42,602 bases of DNA from NCBI GenBank assembly GCA_038240915.1, contig JBBRGH010000001.1:1-42602 (forward strand). The letters run 5' to 3'. The position numbers and the translations under genes are program-made. The DNA comes from Gemmatimonadales bacterium. GTDB lineage: Bacteria; Gemmatimonadota; Gemmatimonadetes; Gemmatimonadales; GWC2-71-9. The notes beneath the pieces are model-generated. The model was not told the origin of the DNA, did not search any database, and worked only from the letters and a program-made list of their open reading frames with translations. Shown in pieces: positions 28,287 to 34,859 of this stretch; position 1 is the stretch's first letter, and every line of letters begins with the position of its first letter.

Positions 28287-28351
28287 GCGGGCGTTCCTCC
28301 AAAGTGAGCCCGGGAAGCTAGTTAGGAAGCGGGGGTTGGTCAAGCGGACGG

Positions 28352-28360
28352 GGCCGGGGC
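28352..28360. repeat. Target-site duplication, left copy (GGCCGGGGC)
   Basis: A 9-bp sequence immediately outside the left inverted repeat. It is identical to 33228-33236, immediately outside the right inverted repeat. Confidence 0.75.
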
Positions 28361-28380
28361 GGTAGTGTCCGGTTATGACT
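28361..28380. repeat. Left terminal inverted repeat GGTAGTGTCCGGTTATGACT
   Basis: Perfect 20/20 reverse complement of 33208-33227. It begins GG-nnn-TG, as IS1-family ends do. Confidence 0.85.
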
Positions 28381-28399
28381 GTAACGGATTTCCGGGGGC

Positions 28400-30055
28400 C
28401 TAGTCGGCGGGGGCGTCCTTGTCGAACAGGCCCCGGATCGGCTCCGCTACCTTCTTGGCCTTGGGTGCCTGCTTGTAAGTCCGGTTGACCCCTGACGTCT
28501 GTGGGTAGTCGATCCGTTTCCCCTCTAGCAGCTCGCCCACTGTCAGAAGCTGAATCCGGGGGTGCTTTCCCCATGGTGACTCATACAACCCCGCGCTGGC
28601 CGCTTCCTGCCGCATAGGTTTAGTGGGCTCCTCGAAGCTCAGAAGCACGCCCATTTCGGCCTTCTCCCGCTGCATCACCCCACCGAGCGAATGCACTTGA
28701 TCCCGCCCGACGTGGCCCGCCTTCACTGAGAGGATGATTTGGTGTGTTTTGCCCCCGGCGGTGCCGTCGTGGAAGTAGAGTCGGCCGTCAATGCCCTTGT
28801 CTGCCCCCTTCTTCTGTTCGGCTGGGCGAGCGCCGACAAGCCCCAGCGCCCACCACTGGAATTGGTAGGGATCGGATGCGGCCAGCACCTCGGCGTCCTC
28901 GACCGTCGTGGGTTCACCGACCACCTGGTAGTTCACGTTGGCCCCGTATGTGTCCCGGAGTCTCGTCTTGATGAGGGCGATTGCGAGATGCGTAACGTCA
29001 ATTCCAATCCATCGGCGGCCGAGTTTCTGAGCGGCGGCAACCGTCGTCCCGCATCCGCAGAACGGGTCCAGCACCGTTGCTCCCTCAGCACTGCTCACCT
29101 TGATGATCCGCTCTAGAAGTGCCTCGGGTTTCTGTGTGGGGTAGCCAAGCCGCTCGGCCGCCTGCGAGTTCAGGGGTGGGATTGTATCCCAAATATCTTG
29201 GAGTGCGGCCCCCTTGGCCTCCTCGGCGTAGACCTTCAACCGAGGCATGCCCCCCTTGTTGGCTGGCCAGTAAATCCGCCCCTCCTTCTCCAGGTCGTCG
29301 AGCTTCCCCACCCCGTACTTCCAGTGTCCCCCCTTGGCCGTAATGTCTATTCCGCGCCACGGCTTACCAGATTCGCCGTGTCGCGTTCCGAGGGCATGGA
29401 GCGTGATGGGATAAAACTTTCTCCCGCCGGGCTCTACATAGGTATACCGCTCCGCAATGTATTCCTCATCGCGCTCAAACTGCGCGTTCCAGGTGTAGTC
29501 CTCGGACTTTGAGTAGAACAGGATGGTGTCGTGTAGGGGGCCGTACTTGGATGAAGAGTTGTGCGCACCAGAGCGTTTCCATATCACCTCGCTCCGGAAT
29601 TGCTCGGGTCCGAACACCGCGTCAAGCAACATTTTCAGATAGTGGCTGGCCGTCGGGTCGCAGTGGAGATACAGCGACCCGGACGACTTTAGCACCCGGC
29701 GCAGCTCGACGAGACGGGGGGCCATCATGGCCAAATACGCCAGCATGTCATTGTCGCCAAGGAACGTGCGGAATGCGAGCATTGCCTGCGCGACCTTGCC
29801 GCCAGCTTCCACCGCCTCCTGGTAGGCCGCCGCCGCCGCCTCGTCCCACTCCCAGGTGTCCTCGAATGCTCGAATCTGCGCCGCCGCCCGCGTGCCGTCC
29901 TTCTCAGCGAACAGCACGTTGTAGTTCTGATTTGAGTTGAACGGCGGGTCTAGGTAAACGAGGTCTACCGACTCGTCCGGGACGTGCCGGCGGAGCACGT
30001 CGAGATTGTCGCCGTAGTAGAGCAGGTTGTCTGTAGGGGGCATGTCGGGGAGCAT
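28400..30055 (-). CDS. Beta-class N6-adenine/N4-cytosine DNA methyltransferase fused to a C-terminal Mrr-like PD-(D/E)xK domain
   Basis: Motif IV '[17 protein letters not shown]' precedes motif I '[26 protein letters not shown]' (beta permutation). The C-terminal '[10 protein letters not shown]...IILSVKAG...QVHSLGGVM...[11 protein letters not shown]' resembles the Mrr_cat fold. ATG 30055 was chosen as the start; alternatives are TTG 30079 and ATG 30043. Confidence 0.87.
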
Positions 30056-30082
30056 ACCAAGGCCGCCGCCGCGCCTCAAGCG

Positions 30083-30949
30083 TTAGCGCGACGGCAGGAG
30101 CCGTTGCGGGTCCATCAGGGCCACGATGTCCTTGACGGTCCAAACCTTGTCCGTCAGGCCCGACGCCATAGCCGGGGTCGTCTTGACGCCCTGAGCAGCC
30201 TTGGTGAGCGTCTGGTGGGGACGGCAGTAGTTGTAATACAGGAAGAACAGGCTGGCCGCGTGGGCGTGATTCTCCGCCTTCTTGGAGAAGGCGTTGGTCA
30301 GCCGGGTATAGCGGCGGCTCTGCATGCGAAGGGTGAGGTTCGACCGCTCGACATAAGACGTAGAGACAAGGTCCGGGTCCGGAGTTCCGATCACACGGAT
30401 TTTCTGTGTGCCGGTGCAGACGGGGGGGCTGTACCGCCGCGACGAATCCACCCCACTCTCAAGCTGGCCGTAGCTCTTCACCAACTGCGCATAATCCACT
30501 TCATCGAAGCGGAAGGCGGCCCGGACGGCGGTGAGGCACATGCCGTGGCCGTCCGTCGTCAACTGAATCCGGCGGGTCACCCGCGCCCGCAAGTCCTGCA
30601 TAAACTCGATGGCGTTCTCTTGGGTCCGCCCGCCCACCAGCCACGTCATGATGAGCTTGGACTCTGCATCCAGGGCCGTAAAGGTCCAAATGTCGCCATC
30701 ACCCGGACGGGTGGCCCGCCGCTGCTTGGCTCCCACGAAGGCCCAAATCTCGTCCGCCTCGACCACCGCCGTCCTGAGGTTCCGGTGGACCGCATCCTGA
30801 TAGGCTGACGCAAACTCCCCCGCCTCGACCATCAGCTTCATGACCGTCTCTTTGTTCGCCCCGGTCATGCGGGCGGTCGCGCGGATGCTGTTGCCCTCGC
30901 AGAGGGCAGTGATGATGGCGGCGCGACGGTCGGCAGAAAGCTTGTTCAT
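30083..30949 (-). CDS. IS1-family DDE transposase (single-ORF type)
   Basis: N-terminal HTH 'NSIRATARMTGANKETV'. 'EADEIWAFVGAKQRR', 'LTTDGHGMC' and 'YVERSNLTLRMQSRRYTRLTNAFSKKAENH' align with E. coli IS1 InsB 'EMDEQWGYVGAKSRQ', 'WMTDGWPLY' and '[30 protein letters not shown]'. ATG 30949 (the ORF track begins at TTG 30970). Confidence 0.87.
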   Translation of the reverse strand: MNKLSADRRAAIITALCEGNSIRATARMTGANKETVMKLMVEAGEFASAYQDAVHRNLRTAVVEADEIWAFVGAKQRRATRPGDGDIWTFTALDAESKLIMTWLVGGRTQENAIEFMQDLRARVTRRIQLTTDGHGMCLTAVRAAFRFDEVDYAQLVKSYGQLESGVDSSRRYSPPVCTGTQKIRVIGTPDPDLVSTSYVERSNLTLRMQSRRYTRLTNAFSKKAENHAHAASLFFLYYNYCRPHQTLTKAAQGVKTTPAMASGLTDKVWTVKDIVALMDPQRLLPSR

Positions 30950-30998
30950 TGTAACGGTCAATATAGCCAATTGCTAAGCATTGGTCAAGGGAGGATTG

Positions 30999-31023
30999 AC
31001 CTAAAAGGTAGCATGGTGCTACC
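30999..31023. promoter_or_regulatory. Candidate MqsA operator palindromes in the TAC promoter
   Basis: ACCT-AAA-AGGT at 30999-31009 overlaps a second palindrome, GGTAGCA-TGG-TGCTACC, at 31007-31023. A TTGACC -35-like hexamer lies at 30996-31001. The sites are 10-35 nt upstream of ATG 31033. Confidence 0.5.
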
Positions 31024-31032
31024 ATTCAGGGC

Positions 31033-31362
31033 ATGCTTCCTAGCATGCCAACCGGGCTAACCGACGAACAGGTGGTGGATTTGGTCCGGACAGCTGCTTG
31101 CAGCGCCGGGTTTTACGTCCATCGCCGGTGCCAGGACTCGGTCCAGGATCACGGCTACGATCTGGCGAGGGTACGGGGGTTGCTGGCGGGCTGCGACGTG
31201 TCGGAACTGGTGAAACATGAGCCCGATGACCAGGGGCGACCGTACTACATCGTGGAGTTCGACATTCTGGACTATGACCAATCGTTCCCGTTCTACATCA
31301 AGGTTTCTCTAGTGATACCCGAGTTGAGAGATGGCTACTTACTCTCATTCAAGCGGAAGTGA
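31033..31362 (+). CDS. mqsR: MqsR-family type II toxin (mRNA interferase)
   Basis: The C-terminus 'FYIKVSLVIPELRDGYLLSFKRK' parallels E. coli MqsR 'VYLKITVIHDVLIVSFKEK'. The N-terminal 'DEQVVDLVRTAA' parallels 'LSQVKKLVNAGQ'. About 105-109 aa (ATG 31033 or 31045). Confidence 0.8.
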   Translation: MLPSMPTGLTDEQVVDLVRTAACSAGFYVHRRCQDSVQDHGYDLARVRGLLAGCDVSELVKHEPDDQGRPYYIVEFDILDYDQSFPFYIKVSLVIPELRDGYLLSFKRK

Positions 31363-31363
31363 C

Positions 31364-31960
31364 ATGAGCCCATCTGAGCCCCTCATCCAGTGCCCGGCAT
31401 GCAGAAGCACCGAGCTTGAAATCGAGCGCGAGGAAAAGTTTGCTCGGAGTGAGCGCGGAAAGTCTGTGGCGTACTGGCAGGAGTTTCACCGTTGCCGAGG
31501 GTGCCAAGAGGAGTTTCTAACTCCGGCGCAGTCGGATGCGAGTAGCCGGGGTCATGCATCGGCCCTCAGGAAAGCCGAGCGGCTGGTCACGCCCGATGAA
31601 ATTGTCGAAGCTCGCAACCGGCTTGGCATGACCCAGGATGATTTTGAGATCGCGCTCGGGGTCGGCAGAAAGACCGTCGTCCGGTGGGAGCGTGGCACGG
31701 TGGTGCCGAGCCGAGCCGCCAACGGACTTCTTTGGTTTGCCGTTCACTACCCGAGCGTGTTTAAGAAGTATGCGCGAGCGAACGCCCCGGAGTCTGTGCG
31801 TGCAACCGCGGAAGCCCAATTGGTCGCCAGTATCAGCTCTCCCCCCGAGGGCCGCGGAATGGCCAAGGTTACCCGCTGGTCGCCTCCGAGCGCAGAGCGA
31901 ACGACCACGGACGCTGGCCCAGAAATCGGGGGCGACGTGCTTGCCGGGAGTTCTGTGTGA
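31364..31960 (+). CDS. mqsA: MqsA-family antitoxin (Zn-ribbon plus XRE HTH) with extended C-terminal tail
   Basis: Starts 1 nt after the toxin stop. 'CPACRS...CRGCQEEF' forms a CxxC/CxxC zinc ribbon. HTH 'ARNRLGMTQDDFEIALGVGRKTVVRWERG'. A further 70 aa or so follow beyond the length of E. coli MqsA. Confidence 0.85.
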   Translation: MSPSEPLIQCPACRSTELEIEREEKFARSERGKSVAYWQEFHRCRGCQEEFLTPAQSDASSRGHASALRKAERLVTPDEIVEARNRLGMTQDDFEIALGVGRKTVVRWERGTVVPSRAANGLLWFAVHYPSVFKKYARANAPESVRATAEAQLVASISSPPEGRGMAKVTRWSPPSAERTTTDAGPEIGGDVLAGSSV

Positions 31961-32430
31961 CGACGCCCGCCCTCCCTCGCGTCGAGATGACCTTAGCGCA
32001 CATCTTCTTGGACCACGCTGAGTTTCGGCATCGGAGCGAGCCGCTAGACTTCGACCCGAGCGCCGAGAGGAAGCCGTCACCGCCAGCAGCTGTGACGGTC
32101 AACTTGCGGCTGGCCGAGGACAAGAAGAGTGTCGCGGTGAGGCTCCAAGTAGAGAGCGAAAACCCGGACAATCCATATATCTACTCGGTCGCTTACGTTG
32201 CGCTCTTTACCGTGCAAACGGACGCCGATCTCGACGCCGAGGAATCCAAGCCGATACGGGATAGGATGATGGCAACCGGGGCAACGGTGGCGATGCCGTT
32301 TGCACGCGAGTTGGTGGGCAACCTGACCGGCAGATCGCGGCTCGGCCCGCAGTGGTTGAATCCTATCAACTTCGCCACGCATCTACTGAATCCTGAAAGT
32401 CAGAACAAGCTAGTTCCGCCCACAATCTAG
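31957..32430 (+). CDS. SecB-like chaperone (TAC chaperone)
   Basis: GTGA overlap with the antitoxin. 'VALFTVQTD...ATGATVAMPFARELVGNLTGRSRLGPQWLNPINF' parallels SecB '[35 protein letters not shown]' and M. tuberculosis Rv1957 'RFALYPYIREYVYDLTGRLALPPLTL'. An alternative ATG lies at 31987. Confidence 0.8.
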   Translation: MTTPALPRVEMTLAHIFLDHAEFRHRSEPLDFDPSAERKPSPPAAVTVNLRLAEDKKSVAVRLQVESENPDNPYIYSVAYVALFTVQTDADLDAEESKPIRDRMMATGATVAMPFARELVGNLTGRSRLGPQWLNPINFATHLLNPESQNKLVPPTI

Positions 32431-32449
32431 GAGCCGAGGGCCTGCCTCC

Positions 32450-32647
32450 ATGCCTGACTACTACAACTCAGCCTTTCACGCTCACGGCGCAGCGGTCCAC
32501 CACGTCGAGACGGAATGCCCTGACGGCTTGCGGGTTCCCGGCCCTGAGCGGGTATCCGGAACTGGCAACCTTCCGATGTGCAATTGGTGTCGGGATGAAT
32601 CGAACCGGCGGCGGAGGCCCCCGCGCCGGTACTACTCTGGCGGGTAG
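32450..32647 (+). CDS. Small Cys-containing hypothetical protein
   Basis: 65-aa ORF. 'HHVETECPDG...VSGTGNLPMCNWC' resembles a small conserved protein type I recall (YH..C..G....SGTGG..LC..C). No clear RBS. Confidence 0.4.
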   Translation: MPDYYNSAFHAHGAAVHHVETECPDGLRVPGPERVSGTGNLPMCNWCRDESNRRRRPPRRYYSGG

Positions 32648-33012
32648 AAGGTCATCTCCCAGGTCGGGCCGTCGGGCTCACCGAGAGTCATCAGCCACAC
32701 GCGGCGGAGGGCGTTGACCGGGAGGCCCGCATCGAGCGCCACAGCCAGCGCACGAAATCCATCGGCGAAAGGCCCGTGGAAGCGAACGGTGGGCTCGGGG
32801 AAGGCATGCCCCGGCCCACCTTCGCAACTTTCATAGGTTTCCACCCCGCAGGCCCGGAGCGCATGCACGATATCGGCTATGCCGATATCGAGGCTACCGA
32901 GCCCCCGGCTACTCTCCAGTGGCCTTCCCGTTCGTCCAGCGGCCTTTGGCGGCCTTTCTTGCGATAGCCGTCCTATCGGCCGGGCTGAGCCTGTCTTTGC
33001 GGTTTCGGCCAC
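32632..33012 (-). CDS. Hypothetical protein
   Basis: Open frame of 126 aa with no recognisable family. The upstream third overlaps the next gene, so the true start is probably internal (for example the GTG of 'VHALRAC'). Confidence 0.35.
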   Translation of the reverse strand: MAETAKTGSARPIGRLSQERPPKAAGRTGRPLESSRGLGSLDIGIADIVHALRACGVETYESCEGGPGHAFPEPTVRFHGPFADGFRALAVALDAGLPVNALRRVWLMTLGEPDGPTWEMTFYPPE

Positions 33013-33157
33013 CCTTCGATCCTCTTGAGACGGCGTCTGGATTATTGTCGCGCTCCCCAGGTGGCAGCGTCTTAGGGGCCTGTCTAGTCGCCTCTAACAT
33101 CGTCCTGAAGGCGATTTCGGCCACGTCGGGCCGGAGCTTGGTCGGTTTCTTTGGCAT
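32909..33157 (-). CDS. Small basic hypothetical protein with KGG / 'ARKAAKGRW' C-terminal motif
   Basis: 82-aa ORF. 'RGSKGGRNRKDRLSPADRTAIARKAAKGRW' is a motif commonly seen at the C-terminus of small mobile-element proteins. This is recollection, not verified. Confidence 0.5.
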   Translation of the reverse strand: MPKKPTKLRPDVAEIAFRTMLEATRQAPKTLPPGERDNNPDAVSRGSKGGRNRKDRLSPADRTAIARKAAKGRWTNGKATGE

Positions 33158-33207
33158 AGCTGGAATCTAGGGACCGGTCCCGGAATCACCAATCGGCTTG
33201 TGTACCA

Positions 33208-33227
33208 AGTCATAACCGGACACTACC
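33208..33227. repeat. Right terminal inverted repeat AGTCATAACCGGACACTACC
   Basis: Perfect reverse complement of 28361-28380. Confidence 0.85.
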
Positions 33228-33236
33228 GGCCGGGGC
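33228..33236. repeat. Target-site duplication, right copy (GGCCGGGGC)
   Basis: Identical to 28352-28360 and directly abutting the right inverted repeat. Confidence 0.75.
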
Positions 33237-33412
33237 CGGGGCGGGCGCGGAGGGCGATCCGCCGAGCGGCGGCGAGCAGGCCGCGGCCGCGCCGAATCGT
33301 CGTGCACGACGGCGGAGCGCGGTCGTGCGGGGCGCGGAAAATTTTCGTCGTTTCGTGCGGTCGAAAATCATTCTGTCAAGAGCGCGATCGCGCACATTTT
33401 TGGCTGGTTGAC

Positions 33413-33421
33413 TTTTCCACA
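33413..33421 (+). promoter_or_regulatory. DnaA-box-like 9-mer TTTTCCACA in the dnaA promoter region
   Basis: One mismatch to TTATCCACA. It immediately follows a TTGAC -35-like element (33408-33412), 56 nt upstream of the dnaA ATG. Confidence 0.4.
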
Positions 33422-33476
33422 CCCGTTCCGTAACATCTCCTGCCCTTGATCAGTCCCCCACCGTTTTCGAGTTCCG

Positions 33477-34859
33477 ATGCAGCTGTCCGCAAAAGACGCA
33501 TGGAAGCGCATCCTCGATGAGGCGCATCGCGAGCTTCCTGACCACACGATCCGGACCTGGCTGGAGCCGACGGAGGCGATCGCCCTCGATGAGGGTCGCC
33601 TGATCGTCGGAGCGCCGGATCAGTTCGCCGTGGAATGGAACGAGACGAAGCACGCGACGCTGCTGTCCCGCCTGGCCGAGCCGGTCATCGGGCGGCCGAC
33701 GTCAGTCGTCTTCCGCGTGCACGAGGATCGTCAGAAGCGGCCGCAGATGGATTTCTTCGTCGCGCCGAGCTCGCCGGCGGTCGTGGCGGTGGCGGCCAAT
33801 CCGAGTACCCAGCCGCTCAACGAGCGGTACACGTTCGACACCTTCGTCATCGGCAAGTCCAACGAACTCGCGGCCGCCGCGGCCCACGCCGCCGCCGAAT
33901 CCCCGGGCAAGACCTACAACCCCCTCTTCATCTACGGCGCCACCGGGCTGGGCAAGACCCACCTGATGCAGGCCATCGCCCACACCGTCTGCCAGCGCCA
34001 GCCCGACACCCGGGTGCTCTACGTCGGGGCCGAGCAGTTCATCAACGAGGTGATCGAGAGCATCCACAGCCGGACCATGCCGGAGTTCCGCCGCCGCTAC
34101 CGCGCCGACGTGGACCTCTTCCTGGTGGACGACGTCCATTTCCTCGAGGGCAAGGAGATGACGCAGGAGGAGTTCTTTCATACGTTTAACGCGCTGTACG
34201 AAGGCAACCGGCAGATCGTCCTGACCTCCGACCGGCCGCCCAAGGAGATCCCGGGGCTCGAGGCCCGGCTGGTGAGCCGGTTCGAGTGGGGCATGGTGGC
34301 CGACATCGGGCAGCCCGACCTGGAGCACCGGATCGCAATCCTGCGGAAGAAGCAGGAGCAGGACCACCTGGAGCTCACCATTCCGGACGACGTGCTGCGG
34401 TTCATCGCTGAGCACGTGCGCTCGAACGTGCGCGAGCTGGAAGGCTGCATCATCAAGCTGCTCCTGTTCGCCTCGCTCAAGCACAAGGAAGTGTCGATCG
34501 AGCTGGCCCGCGAGGCGCTGAGCGACAAAATCCGGCCGGGTGAGGACGGGATGGCGAATCCCAAGGCCCTGCCGTCGATCAACAAGGTGCAGGAGGTGGT
34601 GGCCCGGCGCTGGGGCGTGACGCCCGAGGGCCTCCGCTCGAAGGCGCGGATCAAGACGCTCACGGTGCCGCGCCAGATCGCGATGTATCTCGCGCGCGAG
34701 CTGCTGGAGATGCAGCTGGTGGAGATCGGGCAGGCGTTCGGCGGCCGCGATCACTCGACGGTGATTCACAGCGTGGACAAGGTGAGCCGGCAGATGTCGC
34801 GCGATCGCACCTTCCGCGAGCGGGTCGATCACGCGCGCCAGGAGTTGTGCGCAGAGTAA
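33477..34859 (+). CDS. dnaA: Chromosomal replication initiator protein DnaA
   Basis: 'W..ILDEA...L.....TWL' at the N-terminus. AAA+ 'YNPLFIYGATGLGKTHL', 'LVDDVHFL' and 'LTSDRPPKEI'. Domain IV 'RQIAMYLARE...IGQAFGGRDHSTVIHS'. Confidence 0.95.
   Translation: MQLSAKDAWKRILDEAHRELPDHTIRTWLEPTEAIALDEGRLIVGAPDQFAVEWNETKHATLLSRLAEPVIGRPTSVVFRVHEDRQKRPQMDFFVAPSSPAVVAVAANPSTQPLNERYTFDTFVIGKSNELAAAAAHAAAESPGKTYNPLFIYGATGLGKTHLMQAIAHTVCQRQPDTRVLYVGAEQFINEVIESIHSRTMPEFRRRYRADVDLFLVDDVHFLEGKEMTQEEFFHTFNALYEGNRQIVLTSDRPPKEIPGLEARLVSRFEWGMVADIGQPDLEHRIAILRKKQEQDHLELTIPDDVLRFIAEHVRSNVRELEGCIIKLLLFASLKHKEVSIELAREALSDKIRPGEDGMANPKALPSINKVQEVVARRWGVTPEGLRSKARIKTLTVPRQIAMYLARELLEMQLVEIGQAFGGRDHSTVIHSVDKVSRQMSRDRTFRERVDHARQELCAE

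Follow-up and report, generated by a model that had tools for sequence, protein, structure and literature searches.

Relatives of the element

The insertion sequences (IS) of the IS1 family have ends that begin GGnnnTG according to the ISfinder rule. Its classical members are compact, with IS1A of Escherichia coli spanning 768 bp (~0.77 kb), carrying no cargo and producing InsA and InsAB′ from insA/insB′ through a programmed -1 frameshift. One subgroup of the family, ISMhu11, covers a size range of approximately 0.9-4.6 kb and, like the '+' subgroups of IS1595, is counted among the transporter ISs (tISs). The tIS concept describes elements in which passenger genes lie within one pair of terminal repeats together with a single transposase gene (PMC7986276; PMC9330008). 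Among the potential passengers of mobile DNA are toxin-antitoxin-chaperone (TAC) modules, the antitoxins of which belong to the MqsA, HigA or HicB family. Those of the MqsRA type, for example that of Vibrio cholerae RC385, combine an antitoxin that has a C-terminal addiction region with a chaperone gene that overlaps it by four nucleotides (nt; PMC3581621; PMC5105189). The subject of this work is a 42,602-nt stretch of contig JBBRGH010000001.1, from a metagenome-assembled genome (MAG) of an uncultured soil bacterium of the Gemmatimonadales, referred to here as the window. In the spacer between its rpmH and dnaA genes lies a segment of 4867 bp (positions 28361-33227) that is very likely an intact, single-copy IS1-family tIS, recently inserted into the variable middle of that spacer; both its intactness and the recency of its arrival are probable. 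Its passengers comprise a DNA methyltransferase and a three-gene module resembling MqsRA-type TAC systems.

Insertion between rpmH and dnaA

The segment is bounded by 20-bp inverted repeats of the sequence GGTAGTGTCCGGTTATGACT, located at 28361-28380 on the forward strand and, as the reverse complement, at 33208-33227, with 20 of 20 positions identical. Each repeat is directly abutted by one copy of a 9-bp target duplication, GGCCGGGGC (28352-28360 and 33228-33236; 9/9 match). An earlier, sequence-only reading of this DNA had claimed perfect repeats and a direct repeat touching both of them, and both were recovered exactly. The 20-bp repeat occurs twice in the window and nowhere else in it, even when three mismatches are allowed, against an expectation of zero from 100 shuffled sequences. 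The target sequence is repetitive in its own right, a short GGGGCC-type repeat (repeat family D11) with a second repeat register; among these registers, the 9-bp one alone touches both ends of the element. Immediately internal to the repeat (28381-28387 and 33201-33207) the two ends differ in sequence: the transposase/methylase end reads GTAACR (GTAACG in this element) and the opposite end reads TGGTACA, a distinction that holds in the window and in 27 metagenome contigs that share the repeat.

Within this single pair of repeats lie one transposase gene (30083-30949, reverse strand), the methyltransferase gene, the TAC genes and two or three small open reading frames (ORFs), an arrangement that matches the tIS definition. 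The guanine-plus-cytosine (GC) content of the element is 61.6%, about 10 points below the 71.7% of the remaining contig, and no other window of the same size on the contig falls below 68.1%, which confirms the compositional drop proposed earlier. The neighbouring dnaA and dnaN genes, adjacent to the low-GC element, themselves have a GC content of just 66-67%. Two other classes of mobile DNA were considered and rejected: a composite transposon, given the one transposase gene, the two repeat copies and the lack of a flanking pair of complete ISs, and an integrase-borne island, given that neither an integrase nor a tRNA is found.

The host flanks are rpmH, encoding ribosomal protein L34 (28125-28286, reverse strand; a PF00468 gene is likewise placed in relatives), and dnaA (33477-34859, forward strand). 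They are 5190 bp apart, a distance that shrinks to 314 bp once the element and one copy of the duplication are subtracted, and 240 bp separate the end of the duplication from the dnaA start codon; the earlier estimates were ~310 and ~250 bp. The segment is an insertion, because in relatives with 92-96% identical DnaA proteins rpmH stands directly beside dnaA. In all five related lineages compared, the spacer is 231-297 bp long and holds no extra genes, with the closest relative (DnaA 96% identical) compared by gene coordinates alone rather than by DNA. These lineages thus display the junction without the element that the sequence-only reading had predicted. The reconstructed empty site, ...GCGGACGG-GGCCGGGGC-CGGGGCGGG..., aligns with the spacers of the relatives, in which ...AAGCTAGTT...GGTCAAGC is conserved on the rpmH side and TTGACTTTTCCACACCCG...TAACAT on the dnaA side. 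When metagenomes were scanned for the duplication joined to the exact left flank, a query that would detect either the empty or the occupied site, no match was obtained.

The insertion point falls in the variable middle of the spacer. Approximately 10 bp away is a putative -35 element of the rpmH promoter (TTGACC; 28337-28342, reverse strand), which was read from the sequence and belongs to a block conserved in the spacers of relatives, though the promoter scan made no call there. On the other side, 172 bp further on, lies a promoter-like site for dnaA (TTGACT-17-TAACAT; 33408-33436, forward strand) that contains the DnaA-box-like sequence TTTTCCACA and is kept in relatives. Since the element sits in the variable middle and both promoter blocks are conserved, both host promoters appear to have remained intact. 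This location is unusual, its significance being unproven. The proposal that proximity to the origin gives the cargo maximal gene dosage is unsupported: TTTTCCACA (33413-33421) is the single DnaA-box-like site in the window and does not by itself locate oriC, and the sign of the GC skew changes near 10-12 kb of the window rather than at dnaA.

Related elements and the conserved gene orf82

Homologues of the transposase are widespread, forming more than 7900 protein clusters across the Gemmatimonadota, Acidobacteriota, Actinomycetota, Chloroflexota and Alphaproteobacteria, many of them named IS1 family transposase by NCBI and JGI. A genome scan yielded 80 loci encoding relatives of the transposase, in which ends were sought by anchoring on GGTAGTG, as a generic inverted-repeat finder proved too noisy in GC-rich DNA. 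Credible repeat pairs were obtained at 51 loci, 39 of them with perfect target duplications (8 bp in 32 elements, 9 bp in seven). The transposases of all seven 9-bp elements are among the closest to that of the window (51-69% identity), and their sources are six MAGs named Gemmatimonadota and one (L045) named Gaiellales. The 51 elements range from 1944 to 8047 bp; with none shorter than this, cargo is the rule in the clade. Two identical copies of the 1944-bp form (L058 and L059) occupy different sites of one genome.

Ends with the exact 20-bp repeat also occur on 27 other metagenome contigs, the flanks of which are unrelated. Among them are short derivatives lacking a transposase, of 698 bp (L093:215-912), 899 bp (L094:3564-4462) and 409 bp (L107:2402-2810), the first two with 9-bp duplications of their own (CGCAGGCCG and GAACCCAGG, respectively). 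Because it recurs with varied flanks and distinct duplications, the repeat is a transposon end rather than a host repeat resembling repetitive extragenic palindromic (REP) sequences, one of the two possibilities that the sequence-only reading had named as refuting its interpretation. The closest relative of the window element, in another Gemmatimonadales MAG (L001), is a sister element of 4978 bp with an 84% identical transposase, the same ends, the same conserved small gene near one end and the same transposase-methylase pair, with different cargo in the middle. A second copy of the exact window element was not found anywhere.

The conserved small gene, orf82 (32909-33157, reverse strand), encodes a basic protein of 82 amino acids (aa) and lies ~50 bp inside the repeat. 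In an iterative profile search, homologues were detected in 76 of 118 sequences, comprising the 80 transposase-bearing genome loci, six dnaA loci, the 27 metagenome contigs, four annotated records and the window; they are present at most of the transposase-bearing loci. Almost all lie upstream of the transposase gene and in its orientation, usually immediately within that end of the element, and the family shares the motif KNPAAVALG-KGGKARA-LT-E-RSEIA-KAA-ARW. These features suggest that orf82 is probably a DNA-binding accessory factor or regulator of transposition, and it may be functionally comparable to InsA of IS1 while not being homologous to it. One homologue, on a Mesorhizobium loti plasmid (L115:2075-2284), is annotated as 'histone H1'.

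Cargo of the element

Passenger genes occupy two slots, the first flanked by orf82 and the transposase gene, the second following the latter. In the second slot is a beta-class N6A/N4C DNA methyltransferase of 559 aa with a C-terminal Mrr-like domain (28400-30079, reverse strand; alternative ATG at 30055), the start of which lies 3 nt past the transposase stop codon. The protein matches PF01555 (E = 1.1e-44), PF22722 (NA-iREase1; 1.8e-7) and PF04471 (1.8e-6), as well as the PADLOC model MTase_II (3e-76). The methyltransferase named in the sequence-only reading is therefore borne out, with the addition of a fused nuclease-like domain that looks inactive. This domain best matches the 'inactive' NA-iREase1 family, its (E/Q)xK motif reads SVK in the translation, and it is probably inactive. 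No separate nuclease gene that could complete a type II restriction-modification pair is found in the element; together with the inactive type of the fused domain, this suggests that the enzyme is probably an orphan methylase. Homologues are present inside five elements with mapped ends (L001, L010, L040, L014 and L018) and directly after the transposase gene at two loci with unmapped ends (L011 and L009). Another counterpart is the orphan methylase of the Mesorhizobium japonicum plasmid pMLa (WP_044552088), which is 51% identical over 97% of the length, nuclease-like domain included. The window gene adjoins a transposase gene inside terminal repeats, whereas the PLSDB gene table, which is incomplete, lists none in the 4 kb displayed on each side of the pMLa gene.

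The first slot contains what the earlier reading called a toxin module, a description that stands and can be made more precise, as three genes are present in the order putative toxin, antitoxin, chaperone. The first encodes a candidate MqsR-like toxin of 105 aa (31045-31362, forward strand; alternative ATG at 31033) with ~30 detectable relatives among 1.8 billion representatives. It has no Pfam match, and a sequence-profile search of the PDB gave no relevant match. The AlphaFold2 model (predicted local distance difference test score 84) has E. coli MqsR (3HI2) as its top Foldseek match, with probability 1.00, a template modelling (TM) score of 0.64-0.70 and E = 6e-3, and sub-threshold matches to the MqsR family PF15723 occur in three of ten remote homologues. 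The second gene encodes an MqsA-family antitoxin of 198 aa (31364-31960, forward strand), which scores 90.5 bits against TIGR03830 (cut-off 61.8) and carries two CxxC motifs and a helix-turn-helix (HTH). Its alignment to MqsA (3GN5) is confined to residues 9-131 (E = 2e-5), beyond which comes a C-terminal extension of ~67 aa; judged by its presence and length alone, this is a candidate chaperone-addiction region, regions of this kind having no sequence similarity between systems (PMC5105189). The third gene encodes a SecB-like chaperone of 157 aa (31957-32430, forward strand; PF02556, 31.8 bits, cut-off 26) with weak matches to SecB (1FX3) and Rv1957 (5MTW), and its start overlaps the mqsA stop by the four nucleotides GTGA (31957-31960).

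In gene order, in the two CxxC motifs, HTH and extension beyond the MqsA fold, and in the overlap of the SecB-like gene with the antitoxin stop, the module corresponds to the published MqsRA-type architecture (PMC5105189; PMC3581621). By this likeness it may be a chaperone-dependent TAC module. It differs from described systems in that its toxin, too diverged for the Pfam MqsR model, is recognizable by fold alone, and in that it lies inside an IS1-like transposon. A promoter-like site for the module (TTGACC-18-TACCAT; 30996-31025, forward strand) is divergent from one for the transposase gene (TTGACC-17-TATATT, 10/12 matches; 30960-30988, reverse strand), both lying between the transposase gene and the toxin ORF. 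Over the -35 of the former is the palindrome ACCT-AAA-AGGT (ACCTAAAAGGT; 30999-31009), a candidate MqsA operator that matches the core of the E. coli operator AACCT-N3-AGGTT (PMC4894380); ACCT-N3-AGGT occurs once in the whole window. A second palindrome, GGTAGCAccaTGCTACC (31007-31023), overlaps the -10 and, within 30999-31023, the first palindrome. It begins GGTAG like the transposon ends, possibly by coincidence.

Two further ORFs fill the remainder of the slot. The first, orf65 (65 aa; 32450-32647, forward strand), is a possible zinc ribbon and may not be a gene. The second, orf126 (126 aa; 32632-33012, reverse strand), overlaps orf82 by 104 nt, an overlap avoided if translation begins at 32868 to give 78 aa. 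Its C-terminal third has one weak tblastn match, to a region without annotation on a Mesorhizobium plasmid, and neither ORF matches Pfam or PHROGs at lenient thresholds. None of the toxin, antitoxin, chaperone, orf65 and orf126 genes has a counterpart in the other elements examined.

Across the clade, cargo was surveyed in 48 of the 51 elements, which contributed 150 ORFs other than transposase genes; left out were an element with doubtful ends and, for each of two duplicate pairs, one of the copies. The Pfam domains recovered were HTH_3 (10 ORFs), IrrE-type peptidase M78 (eight), N6_N4 methylase (five), NA-iREase1 (four), Fic, STAND NTPase and KAP NTPase (three each), and C5 methylase and NYN (two each). 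In addition, the cargo of a relative located on an Acidiphilium plasmid includes a RES-toxin/Xre-antitoxin pair. Together, these indicate that toxin-antitoxin and defence-type cargo is typical of the clade.

Stabilization of the element through post-segregational addiction, or else defence of the abortive-infection type, would be the most likely role of the toxin module, and the methyltransferase would most likely act as an orphan enzyme in protecting or marking DNA. There is a fair chance, short of even, that the cargo instead serves the host, through anti-phage defence or through epigenetic regulation near dnaA. The wealth of defence and toxin domains in the clade points in this direction (eight IrrE-type peptidases with HTH, seven methylases, three Fic proteins, the STAND, KAP and NYN domains and the RES/Xre pair). 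Set against this, PADLOC made no system-level match beyond the methyltransferase, and no active nuclease partner is evident. A host-serving cargo would also be compatible with a transposon and does not exclude one.

Transposase and family assignment

The transposase is a DDE enzyme of 288 aa that carries an N-terminal HTH (Pfam HTH_23) and the catalytic residues D66, D132 and E201. It passes the cut-off of the Pfam model DDE_Tnp_IS1 (PF03400; 35.8 bits, cut-off 24.1), finds InsB of E. coli IS1A by BLASTP (E = 2e-6), and in a multiple alignment its three catalytic residues fall on D44, D101 and E126 of InsB. The alignment with InsB that had been claimed from the sequence is thus upheld, as is the assignment on the basis of the GGTAGTG ends and 9-bp duplication, which lie within the GGnnnTG and 8-9 bp typical of IS1. 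The IS1A ends read GGTAATG and GGTGATG, so that all conform to GGTRRTG, and the duplications of 8-9 bp extend to the clade of the window element as a whole.

Beyond these shared features, the window element departs from IS1A in several ways. At 4867 bp it is far from the size of the classical form, and its single transposase ORF shows no sign of the insA/insB′ frameshift. The transposase has an HTH of its own, an insertion of 44 aa between the second D and the E, and a C-terminal extension of ~60 aa, and besides its six or seven passenger ORFs the element has a separate conserved gene, orf82, at its far end. A possible member of the ISMhu11 subgroup, it is slightly larger than the size range of that subgroup, which its relatives of up to 8 kb exceed further.

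Several observations weigh against the interpretation of this segment as an intact IS1-family tIS. The NCBIfam IS1 model (NF033558) scores the transposase at 61.5, under its cut-off of 100; the transposase is a single ORF, unlike that of classical IS1; its second D and E are separated by 69 aa rather than 25; and it bears an additional C-terminal segment of YNxxRPH type. Among the passengers, the toxin is assigned by a fold match with a modest E-value (6e-3). The product of orf82 has no Pfam or PHROGs match at lenient thresholds, and its single-sequence AlphaFold2 model, two helices joined by a disordered linker, is of low confidence (predicted TM score 0.25). Finally, there is no second exact copy, so mobility is inferred rather than observed, and activity is judged from intactness.

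The first four of these observations could also be explained if the element belonged to another family, such as IS1595 or an IS481-like group, or to a lineage of its own, in which case the IS1 label would reflect distant similarity among DDE enzymes. The weak matches to IS481, IS630 and IS6 models fit this, as does the Pfam IS1 match, which covers just positions 5-69 of the 131 in the profile. It is nevertheless improbable, given that IS1 is the best match in both Pfam and NCBIfam, that all three catalytic blocks align with InsB, that ends and duplications are of IS1 type, and that homologues are named IS1 family transposases by both NCBI and JGI. IS1595 in particular was rejected, with no match to that family at E <= 0.01 and none to PF12762.

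A dead relic, or a chimera produced by assembly or binning, would be consistent with the single copy, with the origin of the contig from a MAG and with exact protein look-ups, which gave no other contig with an identical transposase or DnaA. Either is very improbable. The repeats and the duplication are perfect, and the transposase is full length relative to homologues of 285-300 aa and keeps all catalytic residues. No chimera needs to be invoked, as the synteny of both flanks (mnmE-yidC-yidD-rnpA-rpmH and dnaA-dnaN) is shared with relatives. Least tenable is the notion that the genes are ancestral residents of the rpmH-dnaA junction bounded by coincidental or REP-like host repeats: the short G/C-rich repeats of the target could yield flanking repetition by chance, but the uninterrupted junction in five related lineages, the presence of the 20-bp repeat just twice in the window and elsewhere always at the ends of IS1-like elements, and a GC content 10 points under that of the host render it extremely unlikely. 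All in all, the claim of a transposon with passenger genes holds in each of its parts: inverted repeats, duplication, IS1-type DDE transposase and cargo.

Proposed mechanism and wider occurrence

By analogy with IS1-type DDE elements, the transposase of the IS1-family tIS would bind the 20-bp GGTAGTG... ends via its N-terminal HTH and cut there, before joining them to target DNA cut with a 9-bp stagger, the repair of which would leave the GGCCGGGGC duplication. The orf82 protein probably takes part as an accessory or regulatory DNA-binding factor. Toxin, antitoxin and chaperone would be read from their own promoter under an MqsA-type operator, and the methyltransferase is probably co-transcribed with the transposase.

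Both tISs and horizontally spread TAC modules are already known, and current concepts are unchanged by this element. It provides a detailed case of a small IS1-type element hauling a complete putative TAC module and a methyltransferase as one unit, and of an element able to insert in the space between two divergent promoters, those of rpmH and dnaA, apparently breaking neither. The clade survey suggests that such elements routinely carry addiction and defence genes in soil phyla that have received little study, and it identifies in orf82 a conserved small protein with a testable role in transposition.

More speculatively, the pairing of orf82 with the transposase could define an undescribed and widespread subgroup of IS1-like cargo transposons, a suggestion that we regard as doubtful. 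Were it correct, the members of this subgroup would never be without cargo, would have two cargo slots and would be a major means by which toxin-antitoxin, methylase and defence genes are moved among soil bacteria. The transposase and methylase of one sub-clade would form an operon, and methylation of the ends or promoter might control transposition. Tandem copies spaced by one duplication length, as at L030 and L001, would point to circle or dimer intermediates.

The arrangement of copies at these two loci is as follows. At L001 (1335-1665) the sister element has a truncated second copy as its neighbour, with 9 bp between it and the right end of that copy; the flanks of the sister element, TATAACGGG and CCTATAACG, show no clean 9-bp duplication. 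At L030 (8341-15998), in an Acidobacteriota MAG, three copies of a 2548-bp relative follow one another head to tail with gaps of exactly 8 bp, which is also the length of the target duplications in that sub-clade. This tandem may have arisen through circle or tandem-dimer intermediates, or through targeting beside an existing end.

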